Shown here: one piece after another, positions 4,309-57,925 of the stretch | Layout of the letters: each line of letters starts with the position of its first letter | Position numbering within the stretch: position 1 is the first letter of the stretch | Origin: Candidatus Niyogibacteria bacterium | Lineage (GTDB): Bacteria; Patescibacteriota; Minisyncoccia; HO2-45-28 | Reading direction: 5' to 3' | Assembly (NCBI GenBank): GCA_016181935.1 | Contig: JACOYI010000003.1 | Coordinates: 35,741 to 99,740, forward strand | Length of the DNA: 64,000 nt | Notes under the pieces: model-generated | Seen by the model: the letters and a program-made list of their open reading frames with translations, nothing else | Databases searched by the model: none | What the model was told of the DNA's origin: nothing | Program-made: the position numbers and the translations under genes

Positions 4309-4320
4309 TGCTTGAAGTAA

Positions 4321-4348
4321 AAAACCCGCCGTGGCGGGTCAATTTTTG
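4321..4348. terminator. rho-independent terminator (bidirectional hairpin ACCCGCC-GTG-GGCGGGT flanked by A and T runs)
   Basis: Perfect 7-bp GC stem after the glmS stop, followed by CAATTTTT. An A-run precedes it, so it can also serve the minus-strand small ORF. Confidence 0.7.
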
Positions 4349-4584
4349 GGAAACAAACTTCGGAACGCGTTGCGGAGAAGATACAGACCGGCACAAAGCT
4401 GGATGAAGGTGAGTGCGTAGGCGACCTTAAAGAAAGAAGACGAGACGCCAACCCAGAAACTCGCATTGTGAGCTTGTTGTATCGAGCTAAAATTCTGAGC
4501 GGAACTGAAAAAAGCGGCGCCCGCAAACAGGAGAAAAACAACAAAGAAGAAAACACGTTTGAGCATCTGCATCGCGAGCTGCAT
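4339..4584 (-). CDS. small hydrophobic membrane protein (~81 aa), hypothetical
   Basis: Internal start MQLAMQMLKRVFFFVVFLLFAGAAFF... is preceded by GGAGG 5 nt upstream. The longer ORF-track version overlaps the glyA start and is less likely. Confidence 0.4.
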   Translation of the reverse strand: MQLAMQMLKRVFFFVVFLLFAGAAFFSSAQNFSSIQQAHNASFWVGVSSSFFKVAYALTFIQLCAGLYLLRNAFRSLFPKN

Positions 4585-4669
4585 CAGCACCTCCCGTGGT
4601 TGAATGAGTCCGGGTTCATTAAACCATTTTTTGTTGAAAATACAAGCGGTATCGGGTATCGTGAGAGCC

Positions 4670-5890: not shown

Positions 5891-6741
5891 TCGTGGGCGG
5901 AAAGGCGATCGCGGAGGAAATTCGCTTTGAACTAAAAAACGAGATTCAGGCGCGAGAACACGCTCCGCGGCTGGATATTATTTTGGCGGGTGATGATCCG
6001 GCATCGGCCGCGTATGTGAAGCGCAAACAGGTATTTGGCAAATCCATCGGCGCAGAAGTCGTGGTCCACGAAACGTCGGAAGATGCTTATCCCGATTCAA
6101 TCGCGCTTATTGCATTCATAAAGGATATCGTTCAAAATCCCGCAACGGATGGGATCATCGTTCAACTTCCGTTGCCGGAATCACTGCGTACGCATACGCG
6201 GTCTGTTTTGGACGCAGTGCCGCCGGAAAAAGATGTTGATTGTCTTTCGTCGGGAGCACTCGAACGGTTTGCGTCGAGGGAGAGCGACATACGGCCGCCA
6301 TCGGTCGGCGTTGTGGATGAAATTTTCCGACGCCATTCCGTCGATATTCGAGGGAAAAAGATCGCGCTGGTCGGCGCTACGGGCGGGCTGGTGGGAAGGC
6401 CGCTTGCGCTCTGGTTTTCGTCGCGCGGCATTCCGTTTTCGGCGGTCAATACAAAAACGCCGCCCGTCCAAATGCGCGAAATTTTGAAAAACGCCGATAT
6501 CGTCATTTCGGGCGTCGGGAAAGCGGGTCTTATAACCGCGGACATGGTGAAGGCGGGCGTCATTGCGATCGATGCGGGGACATCGAGTTCGTTTGGCACA
6601 CTTCGTGGCGATATGGACCCCGCGATCGCTTTGAAAGCCGAATTATTCACGCCCGTACCGGGCGGTGTCGGTCCAATCACAGTCGCGATGCTTTTTCGGA
6701 ATCTGCTTGCGCTTGCAAATAAATCCAAGGGTAGTCCTTAG
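5887..6741 (+). CDS. folD: bifunctional methylenetetrahydrofolate dehydrogenase/cyclohydrolase
   Basis: MIVGGKAIAEEI..., YVKRKQ, GVGPIT. It overlaps the glyA stop by 4 nt (translational coupling). Confidence 0.85.
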   Translation: MIVGGKAIAEEIRFELKNEIQAREHAPRLDIILAGDDPASAAYVKRKQVFGKSIGAEVVVHETSEDAYPDSIALIAFIKDIVQNPATDGIIVQLPLPESLRTHTRSVLDAVPPEKDVDCLSSGALERFASRESDIRPPSVGVVDEIFRRHSVDIRGKKIALVGATGGLVGRPLALWFSSRGIPFSAVNTKTPPVQMREILKNADIVISGVGKAGLITADMVKAGVIAIDAGTSSSFGTLRGDMDPAIALKAELFTPVPGGVGPITVAMLFRNLLALANKSKGSP

Positions 6742-8738: not shown

Positions 8739-9320
8739 TTAGGCCTTCCAATACTTTATTTCATCAACGAAACGGTGGACATTTTTAGAAAGGCGAATAG
8801 TGTGTTTTATCTTCTTATTTGATTGTTCTAGCTTTTGCATCGTTGGCGAATAGCCGATAGAGCGCATCATGGAAAATGCATCATGCGCCAAGGTTTCGCA
8901 TGTGTTCACAAAATTGATCATGGGATAGCCGCGATCATGGTATAGCGACCCATCGGTTTGTAATAATCCGCGCAAGCACTCTTTTGTATAGATGGCACGT
9001 TGTTTGATCCACGGCGGGACTGCGACATTCTGTTTGTCTTTCGGACCACCATCCCATCTCCATTCGAGAAGCTTGGGAAGATGGTTAGAGTAAACACTTA
9101 CATCTGCGCAAGATCGCTGATTGACGATATTCACGGAGTTATCCGGAAATAATCGCTGTAATGATTTGGCAATATGATGAAGTAGTTTTTTGTACCGTTT
9201 GTCGCAGGTTATGCGTAATCGCACAGCTCGTCCGTTGGGGTTGGAAAGATTGCCATCACCAAGAGCAAGACCTACAATATATGCTCTCAATTTTTTATCT
9301 CGGCTTACGAGTTTTTTCAC
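8739..9320 (-). CDS. LAGLIDADG homing endonuclease
   Basis: YIVGLALGDGNLS and GLLQTDGSLYHD are two LAGLIDADG motifs. The ORF-track N-terminus reads through tRNA-Leu, so the likely start is GTG at 9320, immediately 3' of the tRNA. Confidence 0.75.
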   Translation of the reverse strand: MKKLVSRDKKLRAYIVGLALGDGNLSNPNGRAVRLRITCDKRYKKLLHHIAKSLQRLFPDNSVNIVNQRSCADVSVYSNHLPKLLEWRWDGGPKDKQNVAVPPWIKQRAIYTKECLRGLLQTDGSLYHDRGYPMINFVNTCETLAHDAFSMMRSIGYSPTMQKLEQSNKKIKHTIRLSKNVHRFVDEIKYWKA

Positions 9321-9321
9321 G

Positions 9322-9404
9322 TGCCTAGGGGGAGAGTCGAACTCCCACGGGCTTTCGCCCAAAGGTTTTTGAGACCTTCGCGTATACCATTCCGCCACCT
9401 AGGC
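9322..9404 (-). tRNA. tRNA-Leu(CAA)
   Basis: Hand-folded cloverleaf: acceptor GCCTAGG/CCTAGGC, anticodon stem AAGGT/ACCTT with loop CTCAAAA, long variable arm TGGGCGAAAGCCCGT, T-loop TTCGACT. Confidence 0.85.
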
Positions 9405-9515
9405 AATTTTAGTATGAAAATTCCACCACTCCAGCATCGCCGTTATTGTATCGGAATATCGGAGTTTTATCCACCGTTTGTCAATTTGGTCGGGTCTGAT
9501 ACGCTGGATGTATCT

Positions 9516-10517
9516 ATGACAGATACCGCGATACGAAATGAACAACCGGCAGGCAGCGTTTTTTGGGTGGAAACCGATAAGATCCGGCCCAATCCGATGC
9601 AGCCGCGCCGCGAATTCGATGAGCCGAAACTCAAGGAACTCGCGGAGTCCATCCAGCAATACGGCATTTTGCAGCCGATGGTGGTGGTGCGCGTGGAGCG
9701 CGATACGGATACCGGCCGCGCCGTGGATTACGAACTGATCGCGGGCGAGCGCCGGCTTCGCGCCGCCAAGATCGCCGGTCTCGCGCACGTGCCGGTTCTT
9801 ATCCGCGACGAACCTGCCGATAAAGTGAAATTGGAATTGGCGCTCATTGAAAATGTCCAGCGCGAGGATCTGAATGCGATCGAGCGCGCGCGCGCATTCA
9901 AGCAACTGATGGACGAATTCAATTTGAAGCAGAAAGAAGTCGGCGCGCGCGTCGGTAAAAGCCGCGAATATGTTGCGAACACGATGCGTTTGCTTTCTTT
10001 GCCTGACTTTATCCAAAAAGCCGTCGTGGACGGCCGGCTAAGCGAGGGCCACACGCGCCCGCTCCTGATGCTTGCGGACCGGCCTCAAGAGCAGGAAGCG
10101 CTTTTCAATGATGTTTATTTTAAGCGCCTGACCGTGCGCGATGCCGAGCGCGCGGCGCGACGGATCGCCGTGGAGCGCGCCCGCCGCAGAGACGATATTC
10201 CGGATGCCGAAACGCGTTCGTTCGAGGAGCGGTTGCGCGAGGTGTTGGGAACGCGCGTGTACATCGAGCGAAAAGGCATCGGCGGCAAAATTTCCATTGA
10301 GTTTTTTTCGGAGGATGAATTGCGGAATTTGATCGCGCATGTCGCGTCGGCCAACGCAGAGGCCGCCCATCATCATGCCGAGGCCTTGGACCCGACGCCG
10401 GCGGCCGTCGAGCACACGGCGCCGGAAGAATGGAGCCGTGAATCGGATCCCGCGAATCCTGACGTCTCCGCGACCGCACACGCGCGCGAGGACGATATAA
10501 AAGGGTTTACGGTTTAG
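9516..10517 (+). CDS. parB: chromosome partitioning protein ParB/Spo0J with acidic low-complexity C-terminal tail
   Basis: IRPNPMQPRREFDE...LAESIQQYGILQPMVV...YELIAGERRLRAAKIAGL matches ParB box motifs. The ORF-track start lies inside the opposite-strand tRNA, so the start was moved to 9516. Confidence 0.85.
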   Translation: MTDTAIRNEQPAGSVFWVETDKIRPNPMQPRREFDEPKLKELAESIQQYGILQPMVVVRVERDTDTGRAVDYELIAGERRLRAAKIAGLAHVPVLIRDEPADKVKLELALIENVQREDLNAIERARAFKQLMDEFNLKQKEVGARVGKSREYVANTMRLLSLPDFIQKAVVDGRLSEGHTRPLLMLADRPQEQEALFNDVYFKRLTVRDAERAARRIAVERARRRDDIPDAETRSFEERLREVLGTRVYIERKGIGGKISIEFFSEDELRNLIAHVASANAEAAHHHAEALDPTPAAVEHTAPEEWSRESDPANPDVSATAHAREDDIKGFTV

Positions 10518-21904: not shown

Positions 21905-21914
21905 CTTTGCCGTG

Positions 21915-21986
21915 TGGGTGTGCTAGGATTCGAACCTAGAACCACGAAGGTATAAGCTTCGCGCTCTACCATTGAGCTACACACCC
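21915..21986 (-). tRNA. tRNA-Ile(UAU), hand-folded with anticodon UAU
   Basis: Acceptor GGGTGTG/CACACCC, D-arm GCTC-AATGGTA-GAGC, anticodon stem CGAAG/CTTCG with loop CTTATAC, T-loop TTCGAAT, discriminator A. Confidence 0.7.
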
Positions 21987-22083: not shown

Positions 22084-22218
22084 GAAACCGCCCTTATTCT
22101 AGCACTGTGTGGATAACTTTTCTATCCTATTTTGTCAACCCCCCGTATAATGACCATGTTATTGCTTTTATCTTTTTAAAGGTCGAGTTTGTATTATTCA
22201 ATGAATTTATAAGCGAAT

Positions 22219-22874: not shown

Positions 22875-22974
22875 GACGGTTTTTGATTTGCCCATCCACA
22901 ACTGTTATGAAAAGGCGCGAAGGTTTATTATAGAGAAGGAACGGAATTTGAAAATTTTTGCATGGAGGCGTGTC

Positions 22975-24996
22975 ATGCCCGAAAACAACCGATTCGATGT
23001 TGACCGCGCGATCACGGATGACGCCGAACGAAAAAAGGAAAAAGGCGCCCAAAAGCAGGAAATTCTGTTCGCTGAATATCTGAAGCGCGTTCAAGAAGAT
23101 CCGAAGATCGCCCAGAACGCCCATGCGCGGGTTTTGGAAACGGTCTTGGGCTTCAGCGTGGAGGATATTCCGGAAGCGGAGCGATGGTTGGGCGTCGAGA
23201 AGCGCTATTCTTTGATCGCATCCAAACTTTTCGGCATTGAAAAGCCGACCGAAGAGATCATGCGATACCTGGAGGCGGGCGCCGAAGGGCTTCCGATCGG
23301 CAAGCAAATTCTTTTGATCGTGGGTCCGACCGCGAGCGGAAAATCCACGTTCGTGAATATTCTCAAGCACGCGCTCGAACACTATCACGAGCGCCCGGTC
23401 TTTATGATCAAAGGGTGTCCCCTGTACGAAGAACCGCTTCATTTGCTGCCTCGTCATCTTCGGGATGAATTTTTCGAGAAAACGAGCATCCGGATCCGCG
23501 GGGATCTCTGTCCGCATTGCCGATATCGACTGATGGAAGAATACAAAGGAGAATGGGCGCGCGTGCCCATCGAAACGTTCACATTCTCGATCCAAGGAAC
23601 GCGCGGTATCGGGTCATTTGAGCCATCGGATGAAAAATCGTCCGATGTTTCCGAGCTCGTGGGCCGTGAGAATATCGCCATCAGTTCAAGAAAGGGCACG
23701 GATCATCCGTTGGCATATTCGCTTTCCGGAGAGTTGGAAAAAGCGAATCGCGGCATTTTCGAGGGGCGGGAGCTTATCAAGGCCGACGAAAAGCTTTTGT
23801 GGGTGTTGATCAGCGCCGCCGAAGAAGGGGAGATCAAAGTTCAGGGCTCAACGCTTCCCCATATTTCTGTTGATGTTTTGATGATCGGTCATACGAATCT
23901 TACGGAATACCGGAAATTCGCGGCGCGTCAGGAAAATGAAGCGCTGCACGACCGGATGTATGTGGTCACATTCCCGTATCTGTTGCGGGTCAAGGACGAG
24001 GTGGCGCTGTATCGCAAGCTCATTCGAAGCGAAAACGATTTCTCGGATCTTCGTAAATGCCATGTGGCGCCGGGAACGCTCGAAATGGCGGCGATCTTTG
24101 CGGTACTTTCGCGGCTTCTGGATTCGCAAATGGGCGTGGATGCGTTGACCAAACTCAAGCTCTATAACGGCGACAAAGCGCTCACCGAGATTCAGAACAA
24201 AGAAAAAATGCCGGTGGATCTGCGCGCGCTCATCGAAGAAGGTCAGGCATCGTCGGATATTTCCAAGCGCGAAGGCATGTTCGGCATCAGCCCCCGGGAC
24301 GTATTGGCTGCGCTCAACACGTCGCTGGTCGCTCAAAAAGGGAAAAACGGATGCTTAACGCCGCTTCGGGCGATCCGCGCGATCCGCGAGATCTTTGAGC
24401 ACCGGATGGGATATACGCCCGAGGAGATCGAGCGGTTCCGAACGCTCTTGTCTGCAGGAGAGGGCGGCAGCGTGATGACCGAGTATCATGATTTTGCGGT
24501 TCGAACCGTAAGCCGAGCGTTTTTGCACGCGTACGACGATCTTAAGCGGGACCTGTTCGGAAGGTATATCAACGAGATCGAATTTTACCGCGAAACGAAA
24601 CGAAAATTCGTTCGCGGTCAGACCCATGATATTCGCAGAGACGAGCTGACCGGAAAACCCAAAGAACCGGACACGAAGTTGATGCGGTCCGTGGAAGAGC
24701 AAATCCCGATCGTCGAATCGGAGGCGGAAGCATTTCGGGGCGAGATCTTGGAATTCAAAGCGGGGACTCCGAATTTTTCTTACGATACCTATCCGCCGCT
24801 TGCCCAAGCCATTGATAAAAAATTATTGCACGACAGCCGGTCGGTTTTGACGCTTGTTTTGGATCCCAACCGTCCTCGCGGCGATGAAGAAAAAAAGCGG
24901 GTTGGAGATCTTTTTAACGCGCTAAAAATGCGTGAGCATTGCGAGGTTTGCGCTCGGGAATTGGTGGAAAAGGCCAGTGAATTTTTGAGGGAATAG
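22975..24996 (+). CDS. prkA: PrkA family serine protein kinase (AAA ATPase-like)
   Basis: GGAGG RBS 6 nt upstream. Walker A LLIVGPTASGKSTFV. Length and domain order match PrkA/YeaG. Confidence 0.85.
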   Translation: MPENNRFDVDRAITDDAERKKEKGAQKQEILFAEYLKRVQEDPKIAQNAHARVLETVLGFSVEDIPEAERWLGVEKRYSLIASKLFGIEKPTEEIMRYLEAGAEGLPIGKQILLIVGPTASGKSTFVNILKHALEHYHERPVFMIKGCPLYEEPLHLLPRHLRDEFFEKTSIRIRGDLCPHCRYRLMEEYKGEWARVPIETFTFSIQGTRGIGSFEPSDEKSSDVSELVGRENIAISSRKGTDHPLAYSLSGELEKANRGIFEGRELIKADEKLLWVLISAAEEGEIKVQGSTLPHISVDVLMIGHTNLTEYRKFAARQENEALHDRMYVVTFPYLLRVKDEVALYRKLIRSENDFSDLRKCHVAPGTLEMAAIFAVLSRLLDSQMGVDALTKLKLYNGDKALTEIQNKEKMPVDLRALIEEGQASSDISKREGMFGISPRDVLAALNTSLVAQKGKNGCLTPLRAIRAIREIFEHRMGYTPEEIERFRTLLSAGEGGSVMTEYHDFAVRTVSRAFLHAYDDLKRDLFGRYINEIEFYRETKRKFVRGQTHDIRRDELTGKPKEPDTKLMRSVEEQIPIVESEAEAFRGEILEFKAGTPNFSYDTYPPLAQAIDKKLLHDSRSVLTLVLDPNRPRGDEEKKRVGDLFNALKMREHCEVCARELVEKASEFLRE

Positions 24997-25083
24997 TGTT
25001 ATTGCCCAGCCCAGTAGGACTGGGCTTTTGTTTTCGCGGTATAATCAAGGCGAAGCGCATTTTGACAACACCTAGAGGTTCCG

Positions 25084-26394
25084 ATGCCGATCATCCGTTC
25101 CGATCCGGTCGCGCAGAAAGGAAAAAAGGACGCCGCGCGGCACCGCGAGAAACAAAAAGACGCCATTCGAAGACAATTGCCCGAGATCATTGCGAGGGAA
25201 TCCATTATCACGTCGAAAAAAGGAAAGATCGTGAAAGTTCCCATTCGTATCATGGATATTCCGCATTTTCGCCCCGCACAAGGTTCTGCGGGTGCGGGAG
25301 TCGGACAAGGGAAGGGAAAAGCCGGGGGTGTTATCGGTCGGCGTCCCGGAACCGGAAAACCGGGCGAGGCGGGAGACCGTCCGGGCGAGGAATATCTGGA
25401 AACAGAGATCGAAATGGAGGAATTGATCGAAATGATGATCGAAGACCTCGGCCTTCCGCGGCTGGAAGAGCGGAAGGGCGAAGGAATGGTCGCCGAAACC
25501 CGATTTAAGATCCGCGGCATTCAGAAAACAGGTCCGTGGGTGCTTTTGGATAAACGAAGGAGCGCCCGGGAGGGGTTGCGCCGGTTTTGGGAATTTTTGC
25601 ATTATCTTGTCAAGGAAACCGGCCGCGATGAGCTCGCCTGTTTTGATGCGCTCGAGCAGACGGATGGTATCCTTGCCGACGCGTTGGAATTGCTGAAAAG
25701 CGGCGCCTATGCGCCGATCCATACGGTTTTTGAGCCGTTTCCGATCTTCTATCCCGACGATCTCCGGTTTTTGGAACAGAAAAAGGACATAGAGTATCAT
25801 TCGCAAGCCGTGGTGTTCGCCCTGATGGATACGTCGGGCTCCATGACGGACAAAAAAAAATATCTTGCGCGCTCGGCGCTTTTTTGGCTCGCGGCATTTT
25901 TGCGAACGATCTACGAGCGGGTCGAGATCCGGTTCATCATTCACGATGCCCGAGCCGAGGTCGTAGAGGAGGAGGAATTTTTCAAGAAAGTACTGGGCGG
26001 CGGAACGCGCGCGTGGACCGCGTACGAACTTGCCGGAGGACTTATGGATTCCGAATATCCGGTATCGGAGTGGAATATCTATTTATGGCATTTTTCGGAC
26101 GGGGAAGATTTTGAACCCGCGCGCGCGGCTCTCGAAGCGAAGAAACTGATCGAACGCGGCATTTCCATGTTCGGGTATGGCGAGATCGAACCGAGCAGCA
26201 GCCATTCCGATTCGGCGCTGCTCGCGGCCTTCAAGGAAATACTGGATGTTCAGGTTCACTGGAAAGAGGGGTTCATGGTGGTCGCAGGGCGGGACATGCC
26301 ATTTCTTGCGGTCGCGATCCAGAAAAAGGAGCACGTTCATTTGGCGCTTCGCGAATTTCTGGACAAAGAGAGGTGGGGCCATGCAACGAAGTGA
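25084..26394 (+). CDS. yhbH: YhbH/YeaH family protein (DUF444, vWA-like)
   Basis: Start MPIIRSDP.... Glycine-rich segment GQGKGKAGG. Conserved position in the prkA-yhbH-spoVR triad. Confidence 0.8.
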   Translation: MPIIRSDPVAQKGKKDAARHREKQKDAIRRQLPEIIARESIITSKKGKIVKVPIRIMDIPHFRPAQGSAGAGVGQGKGKAGGVIGRRPGTGKPGEAGDRPGEEYLETEIEMEELIEMMIEDLGLPRLEERKGEGMVAETRFKIRGIQKTGPWVLLDKRRSAREGLRRFWEFLHYLVKETGRDELACFDALEQTDGILADALELLKSGAYAPIHTVFEPFPIFYPDDLRFLEQKKDIEYHSQAVVFALMDTSGSMTDKKKYLARSALFWLAAFLRTIYERVEIRFIIHDARAEVVEEEEFFKKVLGGGTRAWTAYELAGGLMDSEYPVSEWNIYLWHFSDGEDFEPARAALEAKKLIERGISMFGYGEIEPSSSHSDSALLAAFKEILDVQVHWKEGFMVVAGRDMPFLAVAIQKKEHVHLALREFLDKERWGHATK

Positions 26395-27919
26395 CGTAAA
26401 GCGATTGGAAACCGTTGAGCGCCGGAGCCGCGAGATCGCCGAAGAGTTCGGACTTTCCACGACCGATGTCATGTTCGAAATCGTGTCGAGCCAGCAGATG
26501 CTCGAAGGGATGGCGTATCGGTTTCCGACCAATTTTTCCCATTGGACGTTCGGACGGGATTACGAACGCCAGCGCACGATCTATGAACATACGGGCGGCG
26601 GCCTTCCCTACGAGGTCGTGTGGAATTTTGAGGTGCCACGGGCGTTTTTGATGGAATCGAATCCATTCGCATTGAATGCGCTCGTCATCGCGCATGTGTG
26701 GGGGCATGTGGATTTTTTTCTGGAGAGCCGGTATCTCCAGCGCGGCCGCGCTTTTTCCGACATTGCCGGAGAAGCGCGAAGCGCCGCCGAGCGGTTTCGC
26801 GGCTATGAAGAGCGGTATGGAAAAGAAAACATGGAAAAATTCATTGACGCGGCCATGTCCATTGAGTGGCATCAGCATCCGGATCCCTTTTTTGAGGAGC
26901 CGGATGAAGAAGAAATGCGTGAGCGGCTGATCCAGCGAGAACGCGCAATGCTCGAACGCACGCGCGATATTCATTCCCAGTTCAAAAAACCGGAAACGAA
27001 AGCCGAGATCCGTGAGATCGAAAAACGCCTGAAACGTCTGTCACGCAAAACTCCGCCTGGGCCGGTATACGACCTCTTGTGGTATATCACCCGGAAATCT
27101 CCTCTGCCGCTCGAACCGTGGCAGCAGGATGTGTTGTCGGTGGTCCGCAGTCAGGCGCGCGCACTTTCTCCCAACCGCAAGACCAAAATGCTGAACGAGG
27201 GATGGGCGACCTATTGGCATGTCCGGATCATGCGGCGGCTGTTCGAGGAAGGGATACTGGACGCAAAAGAGCACGGCATTTTTTCGGATTTCCATGCGAA
27301 GGTCACGCGTCCTCTGCGCCGCGATTTCAATTGGTACGCGATCGGGCCGGCGCTTTACGAATATGTACGCGAGCGGTGGGATCGCGGGCAATTCGGGCTC
27401 GAATTCGAGGAATGCGGCGATTCCGCAAAAAGAGCGTACTGGGATACGAAAGTAGGCAAGGGGCGGGAGAAAATATTCGAACTGCGGTCGTTTTACACCG
27501 ATCGCATGGCCATTGAGCATTTCTTTGATGCGGATTTCATCCGTCGCAACGATCTGTATCTTTATACGGAGACCGTGGATCCGCAAAATGGGGACATTGT
27601 GGATGTCATTGCGGAAAAGGATCCTGAAACGATCCGGCGCATGTTGAAACACGCCTTTGTTCATTACGGGACGCCCGTGATCCGCGTGGAGGACGGGAAT
27701 CATAATCAGCGCAGCGAACTCTATTTGGTGCATGAATTCGACGGATTCGAATTGGATCCGGCGTATCGCGACCGGACGCTCGAAAATATCCATGAACTTT
27801 GGGGACGCGCCGTGCATCTGGAAACGGTCATTCAGGGAAAGCGGACGCTTTGCACGTATAACGGAAGAAGCGTCTCGACGGATACGGGTTCTTCGGCCGA
27901 CGGATTGATGGAATTATGA
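26381..27919 (+). CDS. spoVR: SpoVR/YcgB family protein
   Basis: Start MQRSDVKRLE overlaps the yhbH end by 14 nt. SpoVR-like length. Followed by a terminator. Confidence 0.8.
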   Translation: MQRSDVKRLETVERRSREIAEEFGLSTTDVMFEIVSSQQMLEGMAYRFPTNFSHWTFGRDYERQRTIYEHTGGGLPYEVVWNFEVPRAFLMESNPFALNALVIAHVWGHVDFFLESRYLQRGRAFSDIAGEARSAAERFRGYEERYGKENMEKFIDAAMSIEWHQHPDPFFEEPDEEEMRERLIQRERAMLERTRDIHSQFKKPETKAEIREIEKRLKRLSRKTPPGPVYDLLWYITRKSPLPLEPWQQDVLSVVRSQARALSPNRKTKMLNEGWATYWHVRIMRRLFEEGILDAKEHGIFSDFHAKVTRPLRRDFNWYAIGPALYEYVRERWDRGQFGLEFEECGDSAKRAYWDTKVGKGREKIFELRSFYTDRMAIEHFFDADFIRRNDLYLYTETVDPQNGDIVDVIAEKDPETIRRMLKHAFVHYGTPVIRVEDGNHNQRSELYLVHEFDGFELDPAYRDRTLENIHELWGRAVHLETVIQGKRTLCTYNGRSVSTDTGSSADGLMEL

Positions 27920-35964: not shown

Positions 35965-36051
35965 GGAGGCGTGGCTGAGCGGTTGAAAGCGGCGCCGTGC
36001 TAAGGCGTTAAGGGGGAAACTCCTTCAGAGGTTCGAATCCTCTCGCCTCCG
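35965..36051 (+). tRNA. tRNA-Ser(GCU)
   Basis: Acceptor GGAGGCG/CGCCTCC, anticodon stem GCGCC/GGCGT (one G-U pair) with loop GTGCTAA, long variable arm, T-loop TTCGAAT. Flanked by the processing-stem-like inverted repeat CCCATAGC/GCTATGGG. Confidence 0.85.
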
Positions 36052-37893
36052 CTATGGGTTTTTAATACGCGCCCTGGGTTTTCGCCAAGATGCCGCCGAT
36101 GCTCGCAATGCGAGCTTTGGCGGGACAAGCCGTGCTAAGGCGTTAAGGGGGAAACTCCAGAGGTTCGAATCCTCTCGCCTCCGCAATCTTGGAATGTCTG
36201 CCTCGAAAGGCAGGCATTTCCGTTTATTCACGCGATATTTTTTAGGTTCGATTGCTATTGTGGTTGAAGGAAAACGATTTGCGATCATCGAATAAAAATC
36301 GAGCGGTTTTTTCAAGGAAATACTCAACTTTTCGTCTTTTAGGGTTAGGTTCGATTCAGAAAGCGACATAAAGACCGCCCGCTTCTGTTCCGGCGCGCCA
36401 TTTTCAAACCACATCCGTGCTGCAACGGCAAAATTGAAGGAGTTCTCCGCCCAATCGATCCATTCCTCAATCTTGCGACCGGTGTCTTGTTGGGCTTCTT
36501 CGAGTTGCTTCTTTTGAGCCAAAAGGGTTTTGCGTTGCGGCTCGTATTCCTCGAGCGTTAGGAGTTCGCCGCTGGCGTTTTTCGGCGATGTATAGAGTTG
36601 CGTCAAATTCTGTAATTCGGCAACAACGTCTTTATAGCGCTTCTGTTGGGAGTCGATGACCGCGTTTTGGTTTTTAACGGTCTCAACATTGTCTTTCGAT
36701 AGTTCCTCAAGCGCCCACTGGCTGAACTCTTGGGAAAGTTTGAATCCTTTGATCTCATTGTCAATGAGTTTCTCCAAAACTTCGGCGCGCATGAATTTCT
36801 GGGTGCACTTCTTATTCTTCTGCTTGGTGCAATGGTAATAAACGTAGTGGAGGATTGTCGGCTTTTTCATTTCTTCAATCCTCGTTTTGCATTGGGGACA
36901 AGCATCTTTGCTCTTGTAAGCAAATTTATATTTACACTTCGTGCAAATGAGTTGATGTTTTTCTTCTGCGGTTACCATCCCGCCGCACTCGCCGCATTCA
37001 ATCTTCCCCGTGTAGGAAAAATGGTGGTTGGTGTGCGATCTTGGCTTTCCTTTCCTGCCGAGCTTCACTTGGATACGGTCAAAGTCATCCTCGGTAATCA
37101 TGGGTGTATGCGCGCCTTTGACGAGATCGCGCTCACCTGTTTCTTCGTTCTTTACTCCAAAGTAGCCGTAGTAAAACGGCTCGGTGAGAATTTTATAAAT
37201 TGCGGAGATGGGAAGATGCCGACCGCCCTGCCGTTTTGTTTGCCGTGTTTTTAAACCCCATTTTACTATTTCTTTTTGAATCCTGCGTACTGAATATTCT
37301 TCGCTCAAGAAAAGTTGGAAGAGACGCTGCACGAGAGGGAAACGTTCGGGGTCAGAGATAATATTTCGTTCACCCTTTGGTTTATCAAGATTGTTGAGAT
37401 ATCCGATGGGTGCGATGCCGTTCCTCCATCCCTGAAGGACTTTTGTCCGGTGTCCACGTTTTACGCTTGCGATCATGTCATCGGAATACTTTTTTGCCAT
37501 GCCGAATTCTATTTGCAGGATGAACTTATCATCAGACGAATTGTAATAAGTTTTGAAAGGCGTGCGCACTTCATCAATGTGTCCTTCGTCCATCAAGGTG
37601 ATTACCCAGCCACCGTCTAAGGCGTTGCGGGCAATGCGGTTCGGCTGCCAGACAAGGAAGGCATTTATTTTGCCCTCCTCCATCATGCTCATGAGTTGAG
37701 CAAACACCGGCCTTCCCCGTTTGTGGGCGGATTTTTCCTCTCGGTAAGTGCCGAGGACTCTGAGGTTGTGTTTCTTTGCGTACTCCTTTAGTTCGCGCTC
37801 CTGCGAATCAATCGAAAGCACCTGCTTATCCTTGTCCTCGGTGGACTTCCGGCAGTAGATGACGTATTTAAGTTTCTCGTTTTGGGTTGTCAT
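36052..37893 (-). CDS. large serine recombinase (phage integrase/transposase type)
   Basis: N-terminal resolvase catalytic domain YCRKSTEDKDKQVLSIDSQ, recombinase domain, Cys4 zinc ribbon (CGECGG...CTKC...CPQC) and coiled coil. The C-terminal ~45 codons read through the tRNA-Ser fragment, so the exact stop is uncertain. Confidence 0.85.
   Translation of the reverse strand: MTTQNEKLKYVIYCRKSTEDKDKQVLSIDSQERELKEYAKKHNLRVLGTYREEKSAHKRGRPVFAQLMSMMEEGKINAFLVWQPNRIARNALDGGWVITLMDEGHIDEVRTPFKTYYNSSDDKFILQIEFGMAKKYSDDMIASVKRGHRTKVLQGWRNGIAPIGYLNNLDKPKGERNIISDPERFPLVQRLFQLFLSEEYSVRRIQKEIVKWGLKTRQTKRQGGRHLPISAIYKILTEPFYYGYFGVKNEETGERDLVKGAHTPMITEDDFDRIQVKLGRKGKPRSHTNHHFSYTGKIECGECGGMVTAEEKHQLICTKCKYKFAYKSKDACPQCKTRIEEMKKPTILHYVYYHCTKQKNKKCTQKFMRAEVLEKLIDNEIKGFKLSQEFSQWALEELSKDNVETVKNQNAVIDSQQKRYKDVVAELQNLTQLYTSPKNASGELLTLEEYEPQRKTLLAQKKQLEEAQQDTGRKIEEWIDWAENSFNFAVAARMWFENGAPEQKRAVFMSLSESNLTLKDEKLSISLKKPLDFYSMIANRFPSTTIAIEPKKYRVNKRKCLPFEADIPRLRRREDSNLWSFPLNALARLVPPKLALRASAASWRKPRARIKNP
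36130..36184 (+). pseudogene. tRNA-Ser(GCU) 3' partial copy (anticodon loop to 3' end, near-identical apart from a 3-nt deletion)
   Basis: CCGTGCTAAGGCGTTAAGGGGGAAACTCC-AGAGGTTCGAATCCTCTCGCCTCCGC lies about 78 bp downstream of the complete tRNA and inside the 3' end of the recombinase ORF. Confidence 0.75.
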
Positions 37894-40410: not shown

Positions 40411-40554
40411 TGTAATTGTAATGTTTAATTTTAATGCCCCCGATTTGCCTCGTTCCTCTAAAAGTTGCACAAAATCCGATAAATGTAAACGTCGCGCTTT
40501 AGTTTTTACGAGTCGATCCTATACAAGATTTACCAAAAATGATAGCGTGATTTT

Positions 40555-41256
40555 ATGAATATAAACACGCTAGTCAAGAAGTTGCACATAATCAAAGATA
40601 AGGGTTTCATAAAAACTCACCGTGCTCACGATACTGGGATTGGTAAAACTCTGGAAGATTTGCTGGAAATAAAAGAAAATAATTTGCAACTCCCTGATGT
40701 CGGAAAGATTGAATTGAAGGCAAAAAGGATCGACTCGGGGAGCATGCTCACTGTTGCCACTAAATCACCCTTACCAAAAGGCGTGAATAGGATTTTATTT
40801 GAGAAGTATAAATATAGGGATAAAGAAGGAAAATATAATCTTCACTCTACCGTGTGCGGTTCGCGAACCAACAGACAAGGACTTAGGGTTGTTTTGAAAA
40901 ACGATAAGTTAATTTTGAAAAATACCTACAACGTTGAGGCATATTGGCCTCTTTCTATTTTCGATGATGTTTTAAAGAGCAAATCAAATAAGATATTGCT
41001 CATTTTTGCTGAAACAAAAGGCGAGAGAAAAACTCCAAGCGAAAAATTTCACTACAGCGAGGCCTATTTACTTTCGGGGCTTAATAGTAAAAAGTTCAAA
41101 TCTGCCATAGAAAAAGATAAACTAAAGGTTGATATTCGAATTGGGGTATATCGAAGCGGCAAATTCAAAGGACGCTATCACGATCATGGCACTGGATTTC
41201 GAATCAATAAAAAAGACTTCCTCCAACTTTTTGATCATTACAAAAAGCTCATTTAG
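40555..41256 (+). CDS. type II restriction endonuclease, MutH/MvaI/BcnI-like PD-(D/E)xK family
   Basis: LPDVGKIELKAKR is a PD...ELK catalytic motif as in MutH. LLIFAETKGERKTPSEKFHYSEAYLL and YHDHGTGFRI resemble conserved MvaI/BcnI blocks. Convergent with and overlapping the methyltransferase by 8 nt. Confidence 0.65.
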   Translation: MNINTLVKKLHIIKDKGFIKTHRAHDTGIGKTLEDLLEIKENNLQLPDVGKIELKAKRIDSGSMLTVATKSPLPKGVNRILFEKYKYRDKEGKYNLHSTVCGSRTNRQGLRVVLKNDKLILKNTYNVEAYWPLSIFDDVLKSKSNKILLIFAETKGERKTPSEKFHYSEAYLLSGLNSKKFKSAIEKDKLKVDIRIGVYRSGKFKGRYHDHGTGFRINKKDFLQLFDHYKKLI

Positions 41257-43114
41257 TTTTTCTCAGAACAACGATACTTTCTCTTGTCATCGTTTCTTCT
41301 AGCTCGCCGGCGATATTGGTGGGGGAATTTTTAATTGGCATTCTTTTGCCTGGTATATTGCGTACCACAATATTCTCACAATTGAACCCGATTTGCTCTG
41401 CGAGTTCGGCAATAATAAAATCGGTCGGTAGTCTTACTTGCTTAACTAAACGATTTCCGATAACGAGACAAAAATACTTATTTGGTTTTAATATCTGATG
41501 GGCTTTTTTAAGGCAATCATTTAGTCCGATATAAAAACTCAAAACATCTTTTGCTCTCTTGGGGTCTCGTTCGTCGATCTTTTTTAGAGAATCTTTGAGA
41601 TAATCTGACGCCAATGAATTTCTTAACTCAATGACAGGCTTACCGCCTAGCAACTTGTTGTCAACTCCGGAAGCTTCATTTGGATCATCAAACATATCAA
41701 TCCACTGTGAAGAAAGCCGTGAAAACTGACCGTAGGCGACAGTCGTTCTACTGTCTCCATAGGGTGGGGAGGTGATAATAAAATCAATGGATTCGTCTTT
41801 TATGCCGTTATCTTTTGAAGAATCTCCGTATATAATTTTTGCCCATGTGTTTCTATCAACGTCACGGTAATAACTCTCCATGCCTTTCATGTTGAGCTCC
41901 GTTCTTTTTTTAAATGTGGCTAAAACATCGGGGCTGTGATTTTCAAGATTTTCTTTTTTAATTCTCACAAGCTTAAATTCTCCGCTCTTTGTATTTGACA
42001 CTTTCCTGACAGTTTCACTAAAAGCAACCATGAAGAAATTTCGGATATTTTTACTGGAGATTTCCTGTATAGCTTTTTTTATTTTTGCCAACTCGATGAC
42101 TACTTTTTCTTTAAACCAAAATTCAACGTTATTAAATACCGGCTTCTTAATCTGATTGTTTTTAATCTCGCCGATTTTTTTTAGGAGTTTTAAATACTCC
42201 TTATTGAGAATCGCGGGGTCAATAGGGGTTGTTTTTGTTTTTGCAAGAAAGATGGCAAGTGGGTTTAAATCAATACCATGCGCATTTCGGCCTAACAGAC
42301 GACTCTCAATCAAGGCCGTGCCGGAGCCACAAAAGATGTCGCAAACCGTATCTCCCTTTTTGCTGTAAGTTAGTAAAAGTCGCCTTGCAACGTGAGGGAT
42401 AAACATTGCGGGGTATGTGTGAAAACCGTGAGTGTATGGTTTGGTATTAACTCTTTCAAAATCCCATGAGTAGTCGATCTGTCTTTGAAGTTTATGATCA
42501 GATACTTTTTCTTTCTCGGTTGGCTTTTCGAGATTTCTAATAATTCTTACAACAACACCGCGAACCTCTAACTCTTTTGTGTAAATTGGGAATAGAGTTG
42601 GATTTGCTGGTTGCAATCTGAAACGATCCTTTTCTCGATAAATCCGTTTTAGCGTTGCCTCGTTGTCATTAATAATCGCAACTACAGTTTGTCCGTTATC
42701 AGCGATGTTCTGCTGCCGAATGACAACAATATCTCCGTCATAGATTCCATCGTCTATCATGCTATTTCCTTGCACTCGTAGGGCATAATGATTGCCGAAC
42801 TTTCCAATGTCGTCTTTCGCAACTGTGATTGTTTCTGGAATTTCTATGGCCTCGATGGGCGTGCCGGCGGCAATCGTACCCAAAAGAGGAATTTTAATCG
42901 TTCTGCTGTTTTTTTCTGCCGACATCGCGCGCGGCTGGTTAACCTCGCGCTGTAAATATCCGGCTTCTTGCAGTCTCTTAACATGAAAATGCGCCGTAGA
43001 AACCGAAGCAAGTTTAAAGCGCCTCCGAATCTCCTCTAAGGATGGGGCGTACCTTTTCTTTGCGCTATATTGTTTTATGAATTCCAAAACTTCCTTTGGA
43101 CGCTTTGTTAACAT
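41249..43114 (-). CDS. LexA-like repressor (wHTH plus S24 autopeptidase) fused in-frame to an amino-DNA methyltransferase (motif I FCGSGT, motif IV SPPY)
   Basis: N-terminal ~205 aa: LTKRPKEVLEFI, HLKAL-like helix, IPLLGTIAAGTPIEA (Ala-Gly cleavage site), LRVQGNSMIDDGIYDGDIVV (Ser nucleophile), GQTVVAIINDNEATLKRIY (Lys), VVVRIIRN. The following ~420 aa carry HGFHTYPAMF...DIFCGSGTALIESRLLGRNAHGIDLNP and IDFIITSPPYG. The reading frame is continuous over 621 aa. Confidence 0.85.
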   Translation of the reverse strand: MLTKRPKEVLEFIKQYSAKKRYAPSLEEIRRRFKLASVSTAHFHVKRLQEAGYLQREVNQPRAMSAEKNSRTIKIPLLGTIAAGTPIEAIEIPETITVAKDDIGKFGNHYALRVQGNSMIDDGIYDGDIVVIRQQNIADNGQTVVAIINDNEATLKRIYREKDRFRLQPANPTLFPIYTKELEVRGVVVRIIRNLEKPTEKEKVSDHKLQRQIDYSWDFERVNTKPYTHGFHTYPAMFIPHVARRLLLTYSKKGDTVCDIFCGSGTALIESRLLGRNAHGIDLNPLAIFLAKTKTTPIDPAILNKEYLKLLKKIGEIKNNQIKKPVFNNVEFWFKEKVVIELAKIKKAIQEISSKNIRNFFMVAFSETVRKVSNTKSGEFKLVRIKKENLENHSPDVLATFKKRTELNMKGMESYYRDVDRNTWAKIIYGDSSKDNGIKDESIDFIITSPPYGDSRTTVAYGQFSRLSSQWIDMFDDPNEASGVDNKLLGGKPVIELRNSLASDYLKDSLKKIDERDPKRAKDVLSFYIGLNDCLKKAHQILKPNKYFCLVIGNRLVKQVRLPTDFIIAELAEQIGFNCENIVVRNIPGKRMPIKNSPTNIAGELEETMTRESIVVLRKTK

Positions 43115-43252
43115 GGCTGTGTATTGCTTTTTATCCCGCACTTAAAGTATAATAGAAAATAAATAGAAAGTCGAAAGTCGGGTTATCCCCAGCTTCATGT
43201 GATAAGTTCGATGGGGGTTGAAATATCCTAAAAATGTGATAAAAAATAAGAA

Positions 43253-44035
43253 ATGTTTGCAACCCAAGAAGAACAAAACAAATACATCAAAGAAACCTAT
43301 CCTGAAATCACTGATAATCGTATTGACGAAGCGCATTGGGATCTTCACTGTTCAAGATGTGAAATAACGCGAGGGTTTTTTGTTACCGAAATGGGCTTTG
43401 CCCACCAACAAACCCGTTATAGCGGCGTCTCTTTGAATCAACCACATGGATTCACATTCCATTGCCCAGTGTGCAAGTTGTATAAGCTCTGGATTGTTTT
43501 TGAGATTTCAGGCAACGAAACAAAAGAAGATGGCAGTCAGGGGTGGGTCAAGAGGTGTTACAAAGTGACATCTCTACCAAGCGAAGGATTAGAGGAGATA
43601 GAACAACTTCCAGAAAATCCCTCGTCTCTCCGCATTGCGTATAGGCAGGCAATACGGGCAATGGATGCGAATGCACACATCGCTGCTGCGGCTATGTTTC
43701 GGCGAGCGCTCCAAATCATCACGCGGGAGATTTTGAAAGCTAAACATGGATCTCTGGCAGATGAGCTAGATTCGCTTGTGGGCACAGAGTTCAACGGAGT
43801 AAAACTTACAAACAACTTCGCTACGAATGGTTACATCATTAGGGAATCAGGGAATCAAGGAGCGCACCCCGACAAAGACCCCGACTTATTGGATTTCACT
43901 CAGCAAGATGCGGAGGATCTACAGGGGATTTTCATGGAGCTTGTCAGTGAGCTTTTTATCGCGCCCGAAGCAATGAAAAAAGCTAAGCAGGAGTTTGTGC
44001 AAAGGAGGAAGATTGCGCCACCAAAAATAGTCTAA
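43253..44035 (+). CDS. zinc-ribbon N-terminal domain plus C-terminal DUF4145 domain protein
   Basis: HCSRC...HCPVC Cys pairs. C-terminus AMFRRALQIITREIL...IRESGNQGAHPD matches DUF4145 (R..LE...IR..GN..AH). Confidence 0.6.
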   Translation: MFATQEEQNKYIKETYPEITDNRIDEAHWDLHCSRCEITRGFFVTEMGFAHQQTRYSGVSLNQPHGFTFHCPVCKLYKLWIVFEISGNETKEDGSQGWVKRCYKVTSLPSEGLEEIEQLPENPSSLRIAYRQAIRAMDANAHIAAAAMFRRALQIITREILKAKHGSLADELDSLVGTEFNGVKLTNNFATNGYIIRESGNQGAHPDKDPDLLDFTQQDAEDLQGIFMELVSELFIAPEAMKKAKQEFVQRRKIAPPKIV

Positions 44036-44050
44036 GATAAAAACTTTTCT

Positions 44051-44599
44051 ATGGATATAAACGAGAAAATCGCCCCTATCTATTCAGAGCTACAAGGATA
44101 CCTTGCACAAGCGCCAGAAAAAGATAAAGAAATCTTCGTTGAAGCTGTTTGGGAACGATACAATCAAACCGTTGAGGAGCTCAATAATGTTTCTGGAAAA
44201 AACTATGATGGTTACCGTGTTCAACCAAGAAGATGGGCGAATACCACGAATCCATGTGTAGCTACTCTTGATTATCGCACCAAGCTCGGAGGAATCATTG
44301 CGCGATTACATCGAGAGTATTTTTCGGATGAAGCAGCGCCTTTCAGCGGAATGCCGAATACCGTAATCAATCAAAGTCAACACCAATACCAATCCATTCA
44401 GATGCTTCTCGAAATACAAGATAAAATCAGTGAGAAGTTTTATCAAGCAACTGAAGGTAGTAAAGAAAAAACTTTTTTGGAAAAAGTGAAAAGTTCTCTG
44501 TCCTCTGTTCGGAATGCTACGGAACTACTCTCGTTGATTATGAAAACAGCAAAAGACATAGGACTGTCGGTCGATGAACTTATAAAACTTTTTATGTAA
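44051..44599 (+). CDS. hypothetical protein (182 aa), co-operonic with the DUF4145 gene
   Basis: 16-nt gap from the upstream gene. Island codon usage. Confidence 0.5.
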   Translation: MDINEKIAPIYSELQGYLAQAPEKDKEIFVEAVWERYNQTVEELNNVSGKNYDGYRVQPRRWANTTNPCVATLDYRTKLGGIIARLHREYFSDEAAPFSGMPNTVINQSQHQYQSIQMLLEIQDKISEKFYQATEGSKEKTFLEKVKSSLSSVRNATELLSLIMKTAKDIGLSVDELIKLFM

Positions 44600-49892: not shown

Positions 49893-50528
49893 TCAACTAT
49901 GCGCGACGACGGCGCCGATGACGGTCTGGGCGCCGGATTTTTTTAATGCGCGCGCGGCTTCGATGAGCGTCGCGCCGGTGGTGGAAATGTCGTCCACGAT
50001 AATGACGGTTTTTTGCGGAATATGATCACCCCGCGCCGCAAACGCGCCGCGCAAATTTTTCAATCGTTCGTTGCGCTTGAGCGTTGATTGCGGCGGCGTT
50101 TCGCGGATTTTAACAAGCGCATCCGCAAATGGCAGATTCAACTGCGCCGCGAGCGCGCGTCCCAACAGTTCGGCTTGATTGAATCCGCGCTCGTGCCGGC
50201 GCGCGGCGGTTGTAGGGATTGCGACGATTTCGGTATCGCGAGGATTTTTTTTGAGCGCATCCGCGAGTAATTCCGCAAGCGCCGAAGCAATGTCGCGCGA
50301 ACCGCGGTACTTCAATTGTTTGAGCGCTCGTTTAATGCCGTCGTTTTGGTATGGAATGCAGGCATAAACCTGCATTCCGGCGTCTAGCCGATAGGTTTGC
50401 GGCGTACATTGCGAAGCGCAGGCGGTGCATATATAAGAACCGCTCCCTCCGCACCCGAAACAGAAACGCGGAAAGAGTATTTGGGCGCAAAAATCCCACA
50501 TTTTGTGGATAAGTCGAAGTCCTTGCAT
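49893..50528 (-). CDS. comF: ComF family phosphoribosyltransferase (competence protein ComFC-like)
   Basis: N-terminal CxxC...CxxC zinc finger followed by the PRTase motif VIIVDDISTTGATL. Confidence 0.75.
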   Translation of the reverse strand: MQGLRLIHKMWDFCAQILFPRFCFGCGGSGSYICTACASQCTPQTYRLDAGMQVYACIPYQNDGIKRALKQLKYRGSRDIASALAELLADALKKNPRDTEIVAIPTTAARRHERGFNQAELLGRALAAQLNLPFADALVKIRETPPQSTLKRNERLKNLRGAFAARGDHIPQKTVIIVDDISTTGATLIEAARALKKSGAQTVIGAVVAHS

Positions 50529-57750: not shown

Positions 57751-57829
57751 AGCCCCAAGGGTAGTCCTTTTCTGATTCCTAAGGACTACCCTTGGGGCTA
57801 TTTTCTGATTCCTAAGGACTACCCTTAAG
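57751..57829. repeat. REP-like palindromic element, copy 4, plus a tandem partial fifth copy
   Basis: AGCCCCAAGGGTAGTCC-TTTTCTGATTCCTA-AGGACTACCCTTGGGGCT followed by a loop-plus-right-arm repeat. Confidence 0.8.
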
Positions 57830-57925
57830 TTATCCACAACGGCAATTATTTTACCGTCCCAAGTCGTCTATAATGGATGTATCAATGTTTTGGGATTATT
57901 TTAACAATTAACTAAACAGCTTTTT

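Follow-up and report, generated by a model that had tools for sequence, protein, structure and literature searches.

A predicted MvaI-type restriction-modification cassette with a LexA-methyltransferase fusion in Candidatus Niyogibacteria

The stretch of DNA analysed here (the window, 64,000 nt of contig JACOYI010000003.1, assembly GCA_016181935.1, from Candidatus Niyogibacteria) carries two convergent genes with the appearance of a type II restriction-modification (R-M) system: R, encoding a restriction endonuclease of the MvaI/BcnI family, and M, encoding an amino-methyltransferase with a LexA-like N-terminus (Table 1). A first-pass annotation had described the two open reading frames (ORFs) and their short tail-to-tail overlap, and both ORFs are indeed found where it placed them, with the nuclease gene ending 8 nt inside the 3' end of M. 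In the ORF list M ran from 41249 to 43141, with a GTG start and 630 aa. However, the homologues of M are all about 621 aa long and begin with MLTKR or MITKR, and the listed GTG is situated only 5 nt past the predicted -10 element. We therefore place the start of M at the ATG given in Table 1. An identical overlap of 8 nt is present in one related locus (L009), and in the remaining 55 convergent relatives the M and nuclease genes abut or overlap by a few nt. No convincing terminator between R and M was found by scanning the window sequence.

Table 1. Features of the R-M locus, in positions of the window
Feature	Position	Strand	Basis or remarks
Spacer upstream of R, 84 nt	40471..40554	+	no C gene, C-box, LexA operator or consensus promoter
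R gene, MvaI/BcnI-family (MutH-like fold) restriction endonuclease, 233 aa	40555..41256	+	Pfam, PDB and PADLOC matches
M gene, LexA-methyltransferase fusion, 621 aa	41249..43114	-	start ATG 43114
Tail-to-tail overlap of both stop regions, 8 nt	41249..41256		TAG 41254-41256 (R); TGA, complement 41249-41251 (M)
M.MvaI-like amino-methyltransferase domain, residues 202-620	41255..42511	-	PADLOC and Pfam
Motif IV TSPPY, residues 448-452	41759-41773	-	
Motif I DIFCGSG, residues 259-265	42320-42340	-	
Peptidase S24 (LexA autoprotease/dimerisation) domain, residues 76-189	42548..42889	-	Pfam 1.3e-27
Lys156	42647-42649	-	
Ser118	42761-42763	-	
Putative cleavage site Ala83-Gly84	42863-42868	-	
LexA winged-helix DNA-binding domain, residues 1-63	42926..43114	-	Pfam LexA_DNA_bind 1.1e-14
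Recognition helix SVSTAHFHVKRL of the LexA module	42971-43006	-	alignment
Predicted M promoter	43146..43174	-	-35 TCGACT 43169-43174, 17-nt spacer, -10 TATACT 43146-43151
Predicted LexA-module operator TTTCTAT-TTAT-TTTCTAT = TTTCTATTTATTTTCTAT	43152..43169	-	11-nt period; fills the promoter spacer
Third, degenerate half-site TTTCGAC	43170-43176	-	
TGGGGATAAC, one-mismatch copy of TGTGGATAAC	43182..43191	-	DnaA-box-like

R matches the Pfam profile MvaI_BcnI (PF15515) over positions 2-227 of 227 (3.6e-44; 151.9 bits against a cut-off of 25), R.MvaI and R.BcnI in PDB (2.4e-35 and 5.9e-21, respectively) and PADLOC REase_II (1.3e-38), and it is 38% identical to R.MvaI. The PD-x4-ELK signature (P47 D48 ... 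E53 L54 K55) and the FAET block, which had already been taken as marks of the family, are present; the third motif cited, HD.G..RI, was one residue short, the real block being HDHGTGFRI. The structure of MvaI with DNA identified Glu36, Asp50, Glu55 and Lys57 as catalytic residues and Arg25, Asn28, Thr29, Asn45, Asp207, Arg209 (central T), Tyr213 and His223-Asp224-His225 as base contacts (PMC1874612). According to our alignment all of them are kept in R, as the catalytic E34, D48, E53 and K55 and the readout residues R23, T27, N43, D193-I-R195, Y199 and H209-D-H211, except that Asn28 is replaced by Asp. BcnI reads its central C:G pair by His77 and His219 (PMC3089477). These positions are occupied by Thr and Gly in R and by Thr and Ala in MvaI, and the position of Arg209 is Arg in MvaI and R (VDIR) and Cys in BcnI. 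We predict that R reads the central pair in the manner of MvaI (W) and not in that of BcnI (S). R would then be a monomeric MvaI-type nuclease nicking the strands of CC/WGG one after the other.

The methyltransferase domain of M was matched by MTase_II PDLC03322, the REBASE-derived type II methyltransferase model of PADLOC, over positions 13-443 of 446 (1.1e-133). Motifs I and IV are invariant in 18 relatives. Motif I precedes motif IV by about 185 residues, and this order with a long insert is what we take to be the alpha-type order (class naming after Malone et al. 1995). The Pfam profile N6_N4_Mtase matches M in permuted order, with its C-terminal half at residues 201-295 and its N-terminal half later. 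SPPY is the form of motif IV typical of N4-cytosine enzymes, which is suggestive only. Unfused methyltransferases with 43-45% identity to this domain were found on plasmids of Geobacillus and Liquorilactobacillus, each of them adjoining an MvaI-family nuclease 38% identical to R, and one also accompanied by a helix-turn-helix (HTH) regulator. The existence of such unfused homologous pairs on Firmicutes plasmids indicates that the pairing of M and R is old and cognate. Together with the intact nuclease and the strong methyltransferase match they uphold the earlier assignment to a type II R-M pair, and we regard it as practically certain from these similarities that R and M constitute a real system. 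Taken as an R-M pair alone it is an ordinary further member of the MvaI kind: it has the nuclease family, the catalytic E-D-ExK, the base contacts and an amino-methyltransferase with TSPPY in common with the MvaI system (CC/WGG, Cm4CWGG), and it differs in that M has an additional N-terminal LexA of 195 residues and in that site and activity are predicted here.

It had been stated that the specificity of the system cannot be inferred from sequence, which now appears too pessimistic. CCWGG occurs 21 times in the window where 84 copies are expected (ratio 0.25), and the 5-mers of the forms CCWGG and CCSGG were ranked as the four most depleted of the 1024. For 86 pooled loci with the same M the ratio is 0.60 (CCSGG: 0.77), while both ratios are 1.0 in 43 control loci. 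N4 methylation of the inner C in CCWGG blocks MvaI (PMC3001055). The MvaI-like readout residues, the TSPPY motif and the depletion of CCWGG make it probable that the system cleaves CC/WGG and protects it as Cm4CWGG; the C-terminal 420 residues of M would be an M.MvaI-like N4-cytosine methyltransferase that makes this modification and protects the host. Two points call for caution. CCSGG is depleted too (0.44 in the window), so that the target may also be CCNGG, and the depletion in the host flanks is not attributable to a recently acquired island alone. Several other short sequences are depleted as well, namely AGGCT/AGCCT (0.18 in the window), CTCAG/CTGAG (0.24 in the window, 0.51 in the pooled loci) and GCWGC (0.6 in the window, 0.57 in the pooled loci L062-L141), a sign that other restriction systems may be acting on these lineages too.

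The less ordinary part of the system is the N-terminus of M. Residues 1-195 match the NCBIfam model TIGR00498 (lexA) over positions 3-202 of 203 with 177.1 bits (cut-off 110.95). The module also matches LexA of T. maritima (3k2z; 1.5e-33), and its residues 2-194 align to the LexA structures of T. maritima and E. coli. Like the LexA/SOS repressors it combines a winged HTH with an S24 domain and possesses the cleavage residues and a box in its own promoter. They are stand-alone proteins of about 200 aa, each with a regulon of several genes; for the module in M no regulon was detected beyond its own gene, and it resides on a mobile R-M cassette. Since it is fused to a methyltransferase of 420 residues and no regulon was found, we regard the N-terminus of M as a LexA-family module and not as 'the' LexA.

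The spacer of the predicted M promoter is filled by the putative operator of this module (Table 1). When the regions upstream of M were compared for 72 non-identical loci, a common layout emerged: the element TGTGGATAAC, the -35, a 7-mer direct repeat with a period of 11 nt and a -10 adjoining or overlapping it. Some loci instead have the repeat in inverted form just 3' of the -10. A period-11 repeat with at most one mismatch was present in 55 of the 72 loci; any other period from 7 to 15 was found in 0-2 loci, and shuffled sequences gave a mean of 1.1. The half-sites vary between loci (TTTCTAT, TTTCGAT, TTTCGGT, GTTCGGT, TTTCGGG and ATCGGG), both copies changing together, and this variation is matched by the recognition helix. 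Helices of the type S-T-A-H followed by F, Y or H go with T/G-A half-sites (43 of 43 loci), and helices of the type [S/A]-T-[I/V]-H-[Q/E] go with G-G half-sites (12 of 12 loci). Fisher's test gave 2e-12 for this co-variation, a value that is not corrected for shared ancestry. Gln in the helix mostly accompanies GGT and Glu mostly GGG. The changing helix positions align with Ala43 and Glu45 of E. coli LexA, and Glu45 is a base-contacting residue in the LexA-DNA structure. A natural control is provided by L141, whose M is 60% identical: here the helix is E. coli-like (SPTAVNDHLKAL) and the promoter contains, in the same place, ACTGTATTTTTATACAGT, a CTGT-N8-ACAG box. In this locus (3986-6588) the MvaI/BcnI nuclease is encoded on the same strand as M and not convergently.

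Autorepression is the simplest reading of the operator's position, its conservation, its co-variation with the helix and its occurrence as a single site, and the fused LexA very probably binds the operator and represses its own gene. The presence of a LexA-type operator within the M promoter also agrees with the first-pass view that the fused module acts as a regulator. A comparable arrangement is known from M.SsoII/M.Ecl18kI, M.EcoRII, M.MspI and M.ScrFIA, which repress their own genes by an N-terminal DNA-binding domain and an operator overlapping the promoter (PMC3874152). LexA-M would seem to follow the same logic, but the likeness is functional and not by descent, because its regulatory domain consists of LexA_DNA_bind and Peptidase_S24. 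The SsoII/EcoRII type has a short HTH on C5-methyltransferases and uses palindromes, whereas LexA-M has a whole LexA and a direct repeat with 11-nt period. Moreover, the methyltransferases to which LexA is fused include N4/N6, Dam-class, gamma-class and C5 enzymes, and DNA damage is potentially an additional input. The spacing of the repeat is that of the alphaproteobacterial LexA box GTTC-N7-GTTC, a direct repeat with 11-nt spacing (PMC8565304), and some fusion loci carry GTTCGGT-N4-GTTCGGT, echoing that box.

It might be asked whether the fusion is instead a general SOS repressor that also methylates, controlling recA, uvr and other damage genes genome-wide. These proteins bear the NCBI name 'transcriptional repressor LexA', and the stand-alone LexAs of the same clade have boxes of the same direct-repeat type (TTTCGGT-N4-TTTCGGT). 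Nevertheless, the operator is present as one exact copy in the 64-kb window, in which no further copies with fewer than three mismatches were found. In 406 kb of related loci extra matches were seen in 16 of 55 loci, all but two of them with two mismatches in AT-rich DNA, and no second site recurred in position. In addition, the gene lies on a low-GC (guanine plus cytosine) island and on swapped cassettes, and the window has the pair STAHFH/TTTCTAT, whereas the stand-alone LexAs are of the TTTCGG type. A role as general SOS repressor is thus very improbable. Since stand-alone LexAs of this clade have TTTCGGT-N4-TTTCGGT, the usual SOS box of Patescibacteria may be the one with GG-type half-sites, and the TTTCTAT type of the window may be derived and private. 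A paper by Sanchez-Osuna, Barbe and Erill on the SOS network of Patescibacteria (Environ Microbiol, 2017) may already define the TTTCGG-type LexA box.

The element TGTGGATAAC had also been considered as a LexA operator. This was rejected, as it is constant across the helix variants, contains no repeat and is also found upstream of host genes such as pilM. Among the 72 related M promoters, 39 have it immediately before the -35, and further copies in the window are at 22108-22117 (+), 50504-50513 (+) and 57829-57838 (-). Its sequence is complementary to the DnaA-box consensus TTATCCACA. In Patescibacteria it may be an upstream element of promoters in general, or it may bind DnaA or a transcription factor.

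M belongs to a large family. The best 120 database matches were 71-95% identical to M and all agreed with it in architecture and length, the named organisms among them being Patescibacteria lineages, and a metagenome scan gave at least 597 matches. In 58 distinct loci with enough downstream sequence, M was accompanied by a nuclease gene 57 times, and in 56 of these cases the two genes were convergent. While M is 65-79% identical across the listed loci, the nuclease is swapped: it is window-like (class A) in 15 loci, of a second MvaI/BcnI class in 18, an MvaI/BcnI enzyme only 37-41% identical to either class in 21 and BsaWI-like in three. All sampled MvaI/BcnI classes possess the equivalent of Arg209 and lack the BcnI histidines. 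The BsaWI-like PD-(D/E)xK nuclease accompanying LexA-M in L011 (6857-7613), L099, L127 and L140 appeared in tblastn as two pieces about 55-70 nt apart, which could reflect a frameshift, a linker that has diverged or the presence of two genes.

The LexA part alone was searched against representatives of 1.8 billion protein clusters. Its closest relatives (approximately 50) were mostly long proteins with LexA at the N-terminus, and in all 44 that were scanned LexA_DNA_bind and Peptidase_S24 were followed by a DNA methyltransferase. The methyltransferases matched N6_N4_Mtase (30), Eco57I-type (7), D12/Dam class (5), N6_Mtase (5), MmeI-type (4) and C5 (2), some of the 44 proteins matching more than one related family. 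Judged by these matches, the fusion of LexA to a methyltransferase is common in Patescibacteria and involves at least five methyltransferase families. Repeats of the same kind by the -10 were also found in R-M loci with other partners: in L014 the fusion is combined with an AlwI-type nuclease and a second methyltransferase, in L017 with an NgoFVII-like nuclease and in L013 with a second methyltransferase. In L144 (136-2474) the two parts are separate: 12 nt lie between an unfused gene for a 198-aa LexA-like protein and the N6_N4 methyltransferase gene downstream of it, and a convergent ORF of 277 aa comes next. No description of natural LexA-methyltransferase fusions was found in the full-text literature searched, the coverage of which did not include the 2017 paper on the Patescibacteria SOS network. 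As far as this search shows, the methyltransferase-borne LexA is a new form of methyltransferase autoregulation, with a different, apparently cleavable domain and a different operator geometry, that is widespread and apparently undescribed.

The residues required for autoproteolysis deserve separate consideration. Ala83, Gly84, Ser118 and Lys156 showed no variation in sets of 18 and 20 close relatives or in the 44 fusion representatives, at 29-46% identity and across five methyltransferase families. A nine-sequence alignment of the fusion classes likewise shows Gly85, Ser119 and Lys156 in every protein; at Ala84 one of the nine, L017, has Gly. Such invariance in proteins of so little overall identity argues that self-cleavage is under selection, and an invariant Ala-Gly site with a Ser/Lys dyad leads one to expect that it is triggered by RecA. 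The module might alternatively be a mere dimerising autorepressor, standing in structurally for the N-terminal HTH of M.SsoII/M.EcoRII, with no part in cleavage or damage sensing. The operator and its co-variation with the helix require only DNA binding and dimerisation, and the cleavage site is Ala-Lys in the unfused relative L144 and Gly-Gly in L017. These two cases, which speak against our interpretation, indicate that cleavage is not universal in the wider clade. The invariance over 44 fusions is, however, hard to understand without selection on catalysis, and we consider the purely structural role rather unlikely. For a functional cleavage, that is a working SOS switch, we see about an even chance.

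Our explanation of the locus is that it represents a mobile MvaI-type R-M cassette whose LexA-M is autorepressing and cleavable in a RecA-dependent manner, and we think it likely as a whole. The N-terminal 195 residues of M would act as a complete LexA, which as a dimer binds TTTCTAT-N4-TTTCTAT between the -35 and the -10 and represses its own synthesis. On entry into a naive cell the M promoter would be open and methylation would come first. As LexA-M accumulates, its level would be held at a set point. RecA filaments on damaged DNA, including breaks caused by self-restriction, would then induce LexA-M to cleave itself, detaching the DNA-binding domain from the S24-methyltransferase part, so that M would be derepressed. 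Whether the outcome is rescue by more methylation or death by loss of M, both are compatible with the sequence.

One version of the latter outcome would make cleavage a suicide trigger: activation of RecA by phage or damage cuts LexA-M, the fragments are degraded in the way known for LexA fragments in E. coli, methylation lapses and R kills the cell, as abortive infection or post-segregational killing. The invariant catalytic residues and the residence of the cassette on mobile islands with serine recombinases would suit such a function, and so would the C-terminal ...IAA that cleavage would expose, a sequence similar to the VAA end by which ClpX recognises cleaved E. coli LexA. On the other hand, the cleaved methyltransferase would keep its S24 domain and gives no sign of instability in its sequence, and loss of the DNA-binding domain should raise and not lower the transcription of M. 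We therefore regard the suicide trigger as improbable.

Returning to the autorepressing and cleavable LexA-M, we tentatively suggest a wider reading, although the balance is slightly against it. According to this proposal Patescibacteria have domesticated a branch of LexA, which senses damage and controls R-M systems in general. Fused to at least five unrelated methyltransferase families, or occasionally encoded just upstream of them, it would set the methyltransferase level by autorepression and couple methylation to DNA breaks through RecA-triggered self-cleavage, leading to rescue from self-restriction or to commitment to death; sub-lineages such as that of the window (helix STAHFH, box TTTCTAT) would have acquired private operators, by which they are insulated from the TTTCGG-type SOS box of the host. 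Several points weigh against the explanation given here, in addition to the deviating cleavage sites. Operator binding, cleavage and methylation are all predicted. A structure model of the fusion built from 20 sequences (mean predicted local distance difference test score, pLDDT, 56; predicted template modelling score, pTM, 0.39) was too poor for use. Finally, a consensus scan revealed no promoter for R.

How R is controlled is a separate question. The first-pass annotation noted that a gene for a C protein is missing and connected this with regulation by the fused LexA. The first part is true for the window, where alignment with C-bearing class A loci revealed no remnant of a C gene upstream of R either. 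The second part does not hold, since 19 of 58 related loci with the same LexA-M, three of them window-like, have an HTH_3 C gene and a classical C-box (ATTCCA...TGGAAT) in front of the nuclease gene. It follows that the LexA module and the C protein are independent layers of control, and to judge from these loci the missing C gene is a trait of the sub-lineage of the window and not of the fusion. No LexA-type operator was found before the C genes of the related loci, which have their own C-box. Many relatives of the window thus resemble the C-protein systems of the PvuII, BamHI and Esp1396I type in having a C gene immediately before R; in the window, without C gene, remnant or C-box, the control of R must differ. 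A possible explanation could lie in the convergent arrangement of the genes. R would probably be expressed weakly and might be damped by read-through from the M promoter, and weak constitutive R expression, damped in this way by the stronger M promoter until M represses itself, might suffice for the usual 'methylase first' order. Both are conjectures by analogy; the control of R-M systems by convergent promoters has been reviewed (PMC3874152).

Some further observations concern the region upstream of R. Several cassettes (upstream of R in L086, L088 and L110) end directly at a tRNA gene. In L089 and L110 only the last approximately 45 nt of the C gene are kept, which suggests that the cassette boundary or deletions are situated within the C gene. 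L003 encodes a LexA DNA-binding domain on its own, as a protein of 122 aa, at 9237-9605 (-), 450 nt from the C-R operon. In the window the 20-mers TCTAAAAGTTGCACAAAATC (40457-40476) and TCAAGAAGTTGCACATAATC (40574-40593), which are 85% alike, bracket the starts of R and of a divergent 295-aa ORF; they could be a site for a regulator or a product of chance.

The wider interest of the fusion lies in a problem that all R-M systems share. The methyltransferase is needed before the nuclease and the own genome must be spared, and the known solutions are C proteins, autorepression by a methyltransferase HTH and antisense RNA. If our explanation is true, a cleavable LexA on the methyltransferase would let DNA damage act directly on modification capacity. 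The natural pairs of helix and half-site (TTTCTAT, TTTCGAT, TTTCGGT, TTTCGGG and CTGT-N8-ACAG) offer a ready set for studying the evolution of LexA specificity. Caution is advisable with databases, as thousands of Patescibacteria entries named 'transcriptional repressor LexA' are R-M methyltransferases. The predicted restriction barrier (CCWGG, N4-methylcytosine) would be relevant for genetic work on candidate-phyla bacteria.

The R-M cassette is located on a mobile low-GC island with a serine recombinase in the chromosome of Candidatus Niyogibacteria (Patescibacteria). In agreement with this host, the topoisomerase I encoded in the window is 100% identical to a protein from a metagenome-assembled genome of Candidatus Niyogibacteria. 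The pair lies in a 10-kb stretch of 38-47% GC within DNA of 55% GC. This stretch adjoins tRNA-Ser(gct) and a gene for a large serine recombinase, and housekeeping genes are present in the flanks. Several related cassettes are flanked by serine recombinases too. The tRNA-Ser(gct) gene (35965-36052) is followed 135 nt downstream by a copy of its 3' half (62 nt, about 36129-36187). The C-terminal approximately 45 codons of the 613-aa serine recombinase ORF (36052-37893) read through this copy and reach the end of the tRNA. The partial copy looks like an integration scar. It was rejected as one of a pair of attachment (att) sites of the island, since it is only 135 nt from the tRNA gene and not at the far end, and no repeat matching tRNA-Ser was found at the far boundary (about 46.1 kb).

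Divergently from M lie a DUF4145 gene (43253-44035, +), whose product has a weak match to PD-T7-4 of PADLOC (1.7e-4), and a 182-aa ORF (44051-44599, +). They accompany the cassette in a second sample (L001) and are absent beside other fusions; possibly they are a separate pair of defence genes. Neither these two nor the 295-aa ORF were accepted as parts of the system, as they are not conserved beside other fusions. Two further features of the window are uncommon in a small Patescibacteria genome: a tRNA-Ile gene with the anticodon TAT (21914-21986, -) and a PrkA/SpoVR gene cluster (22888-27919, +).

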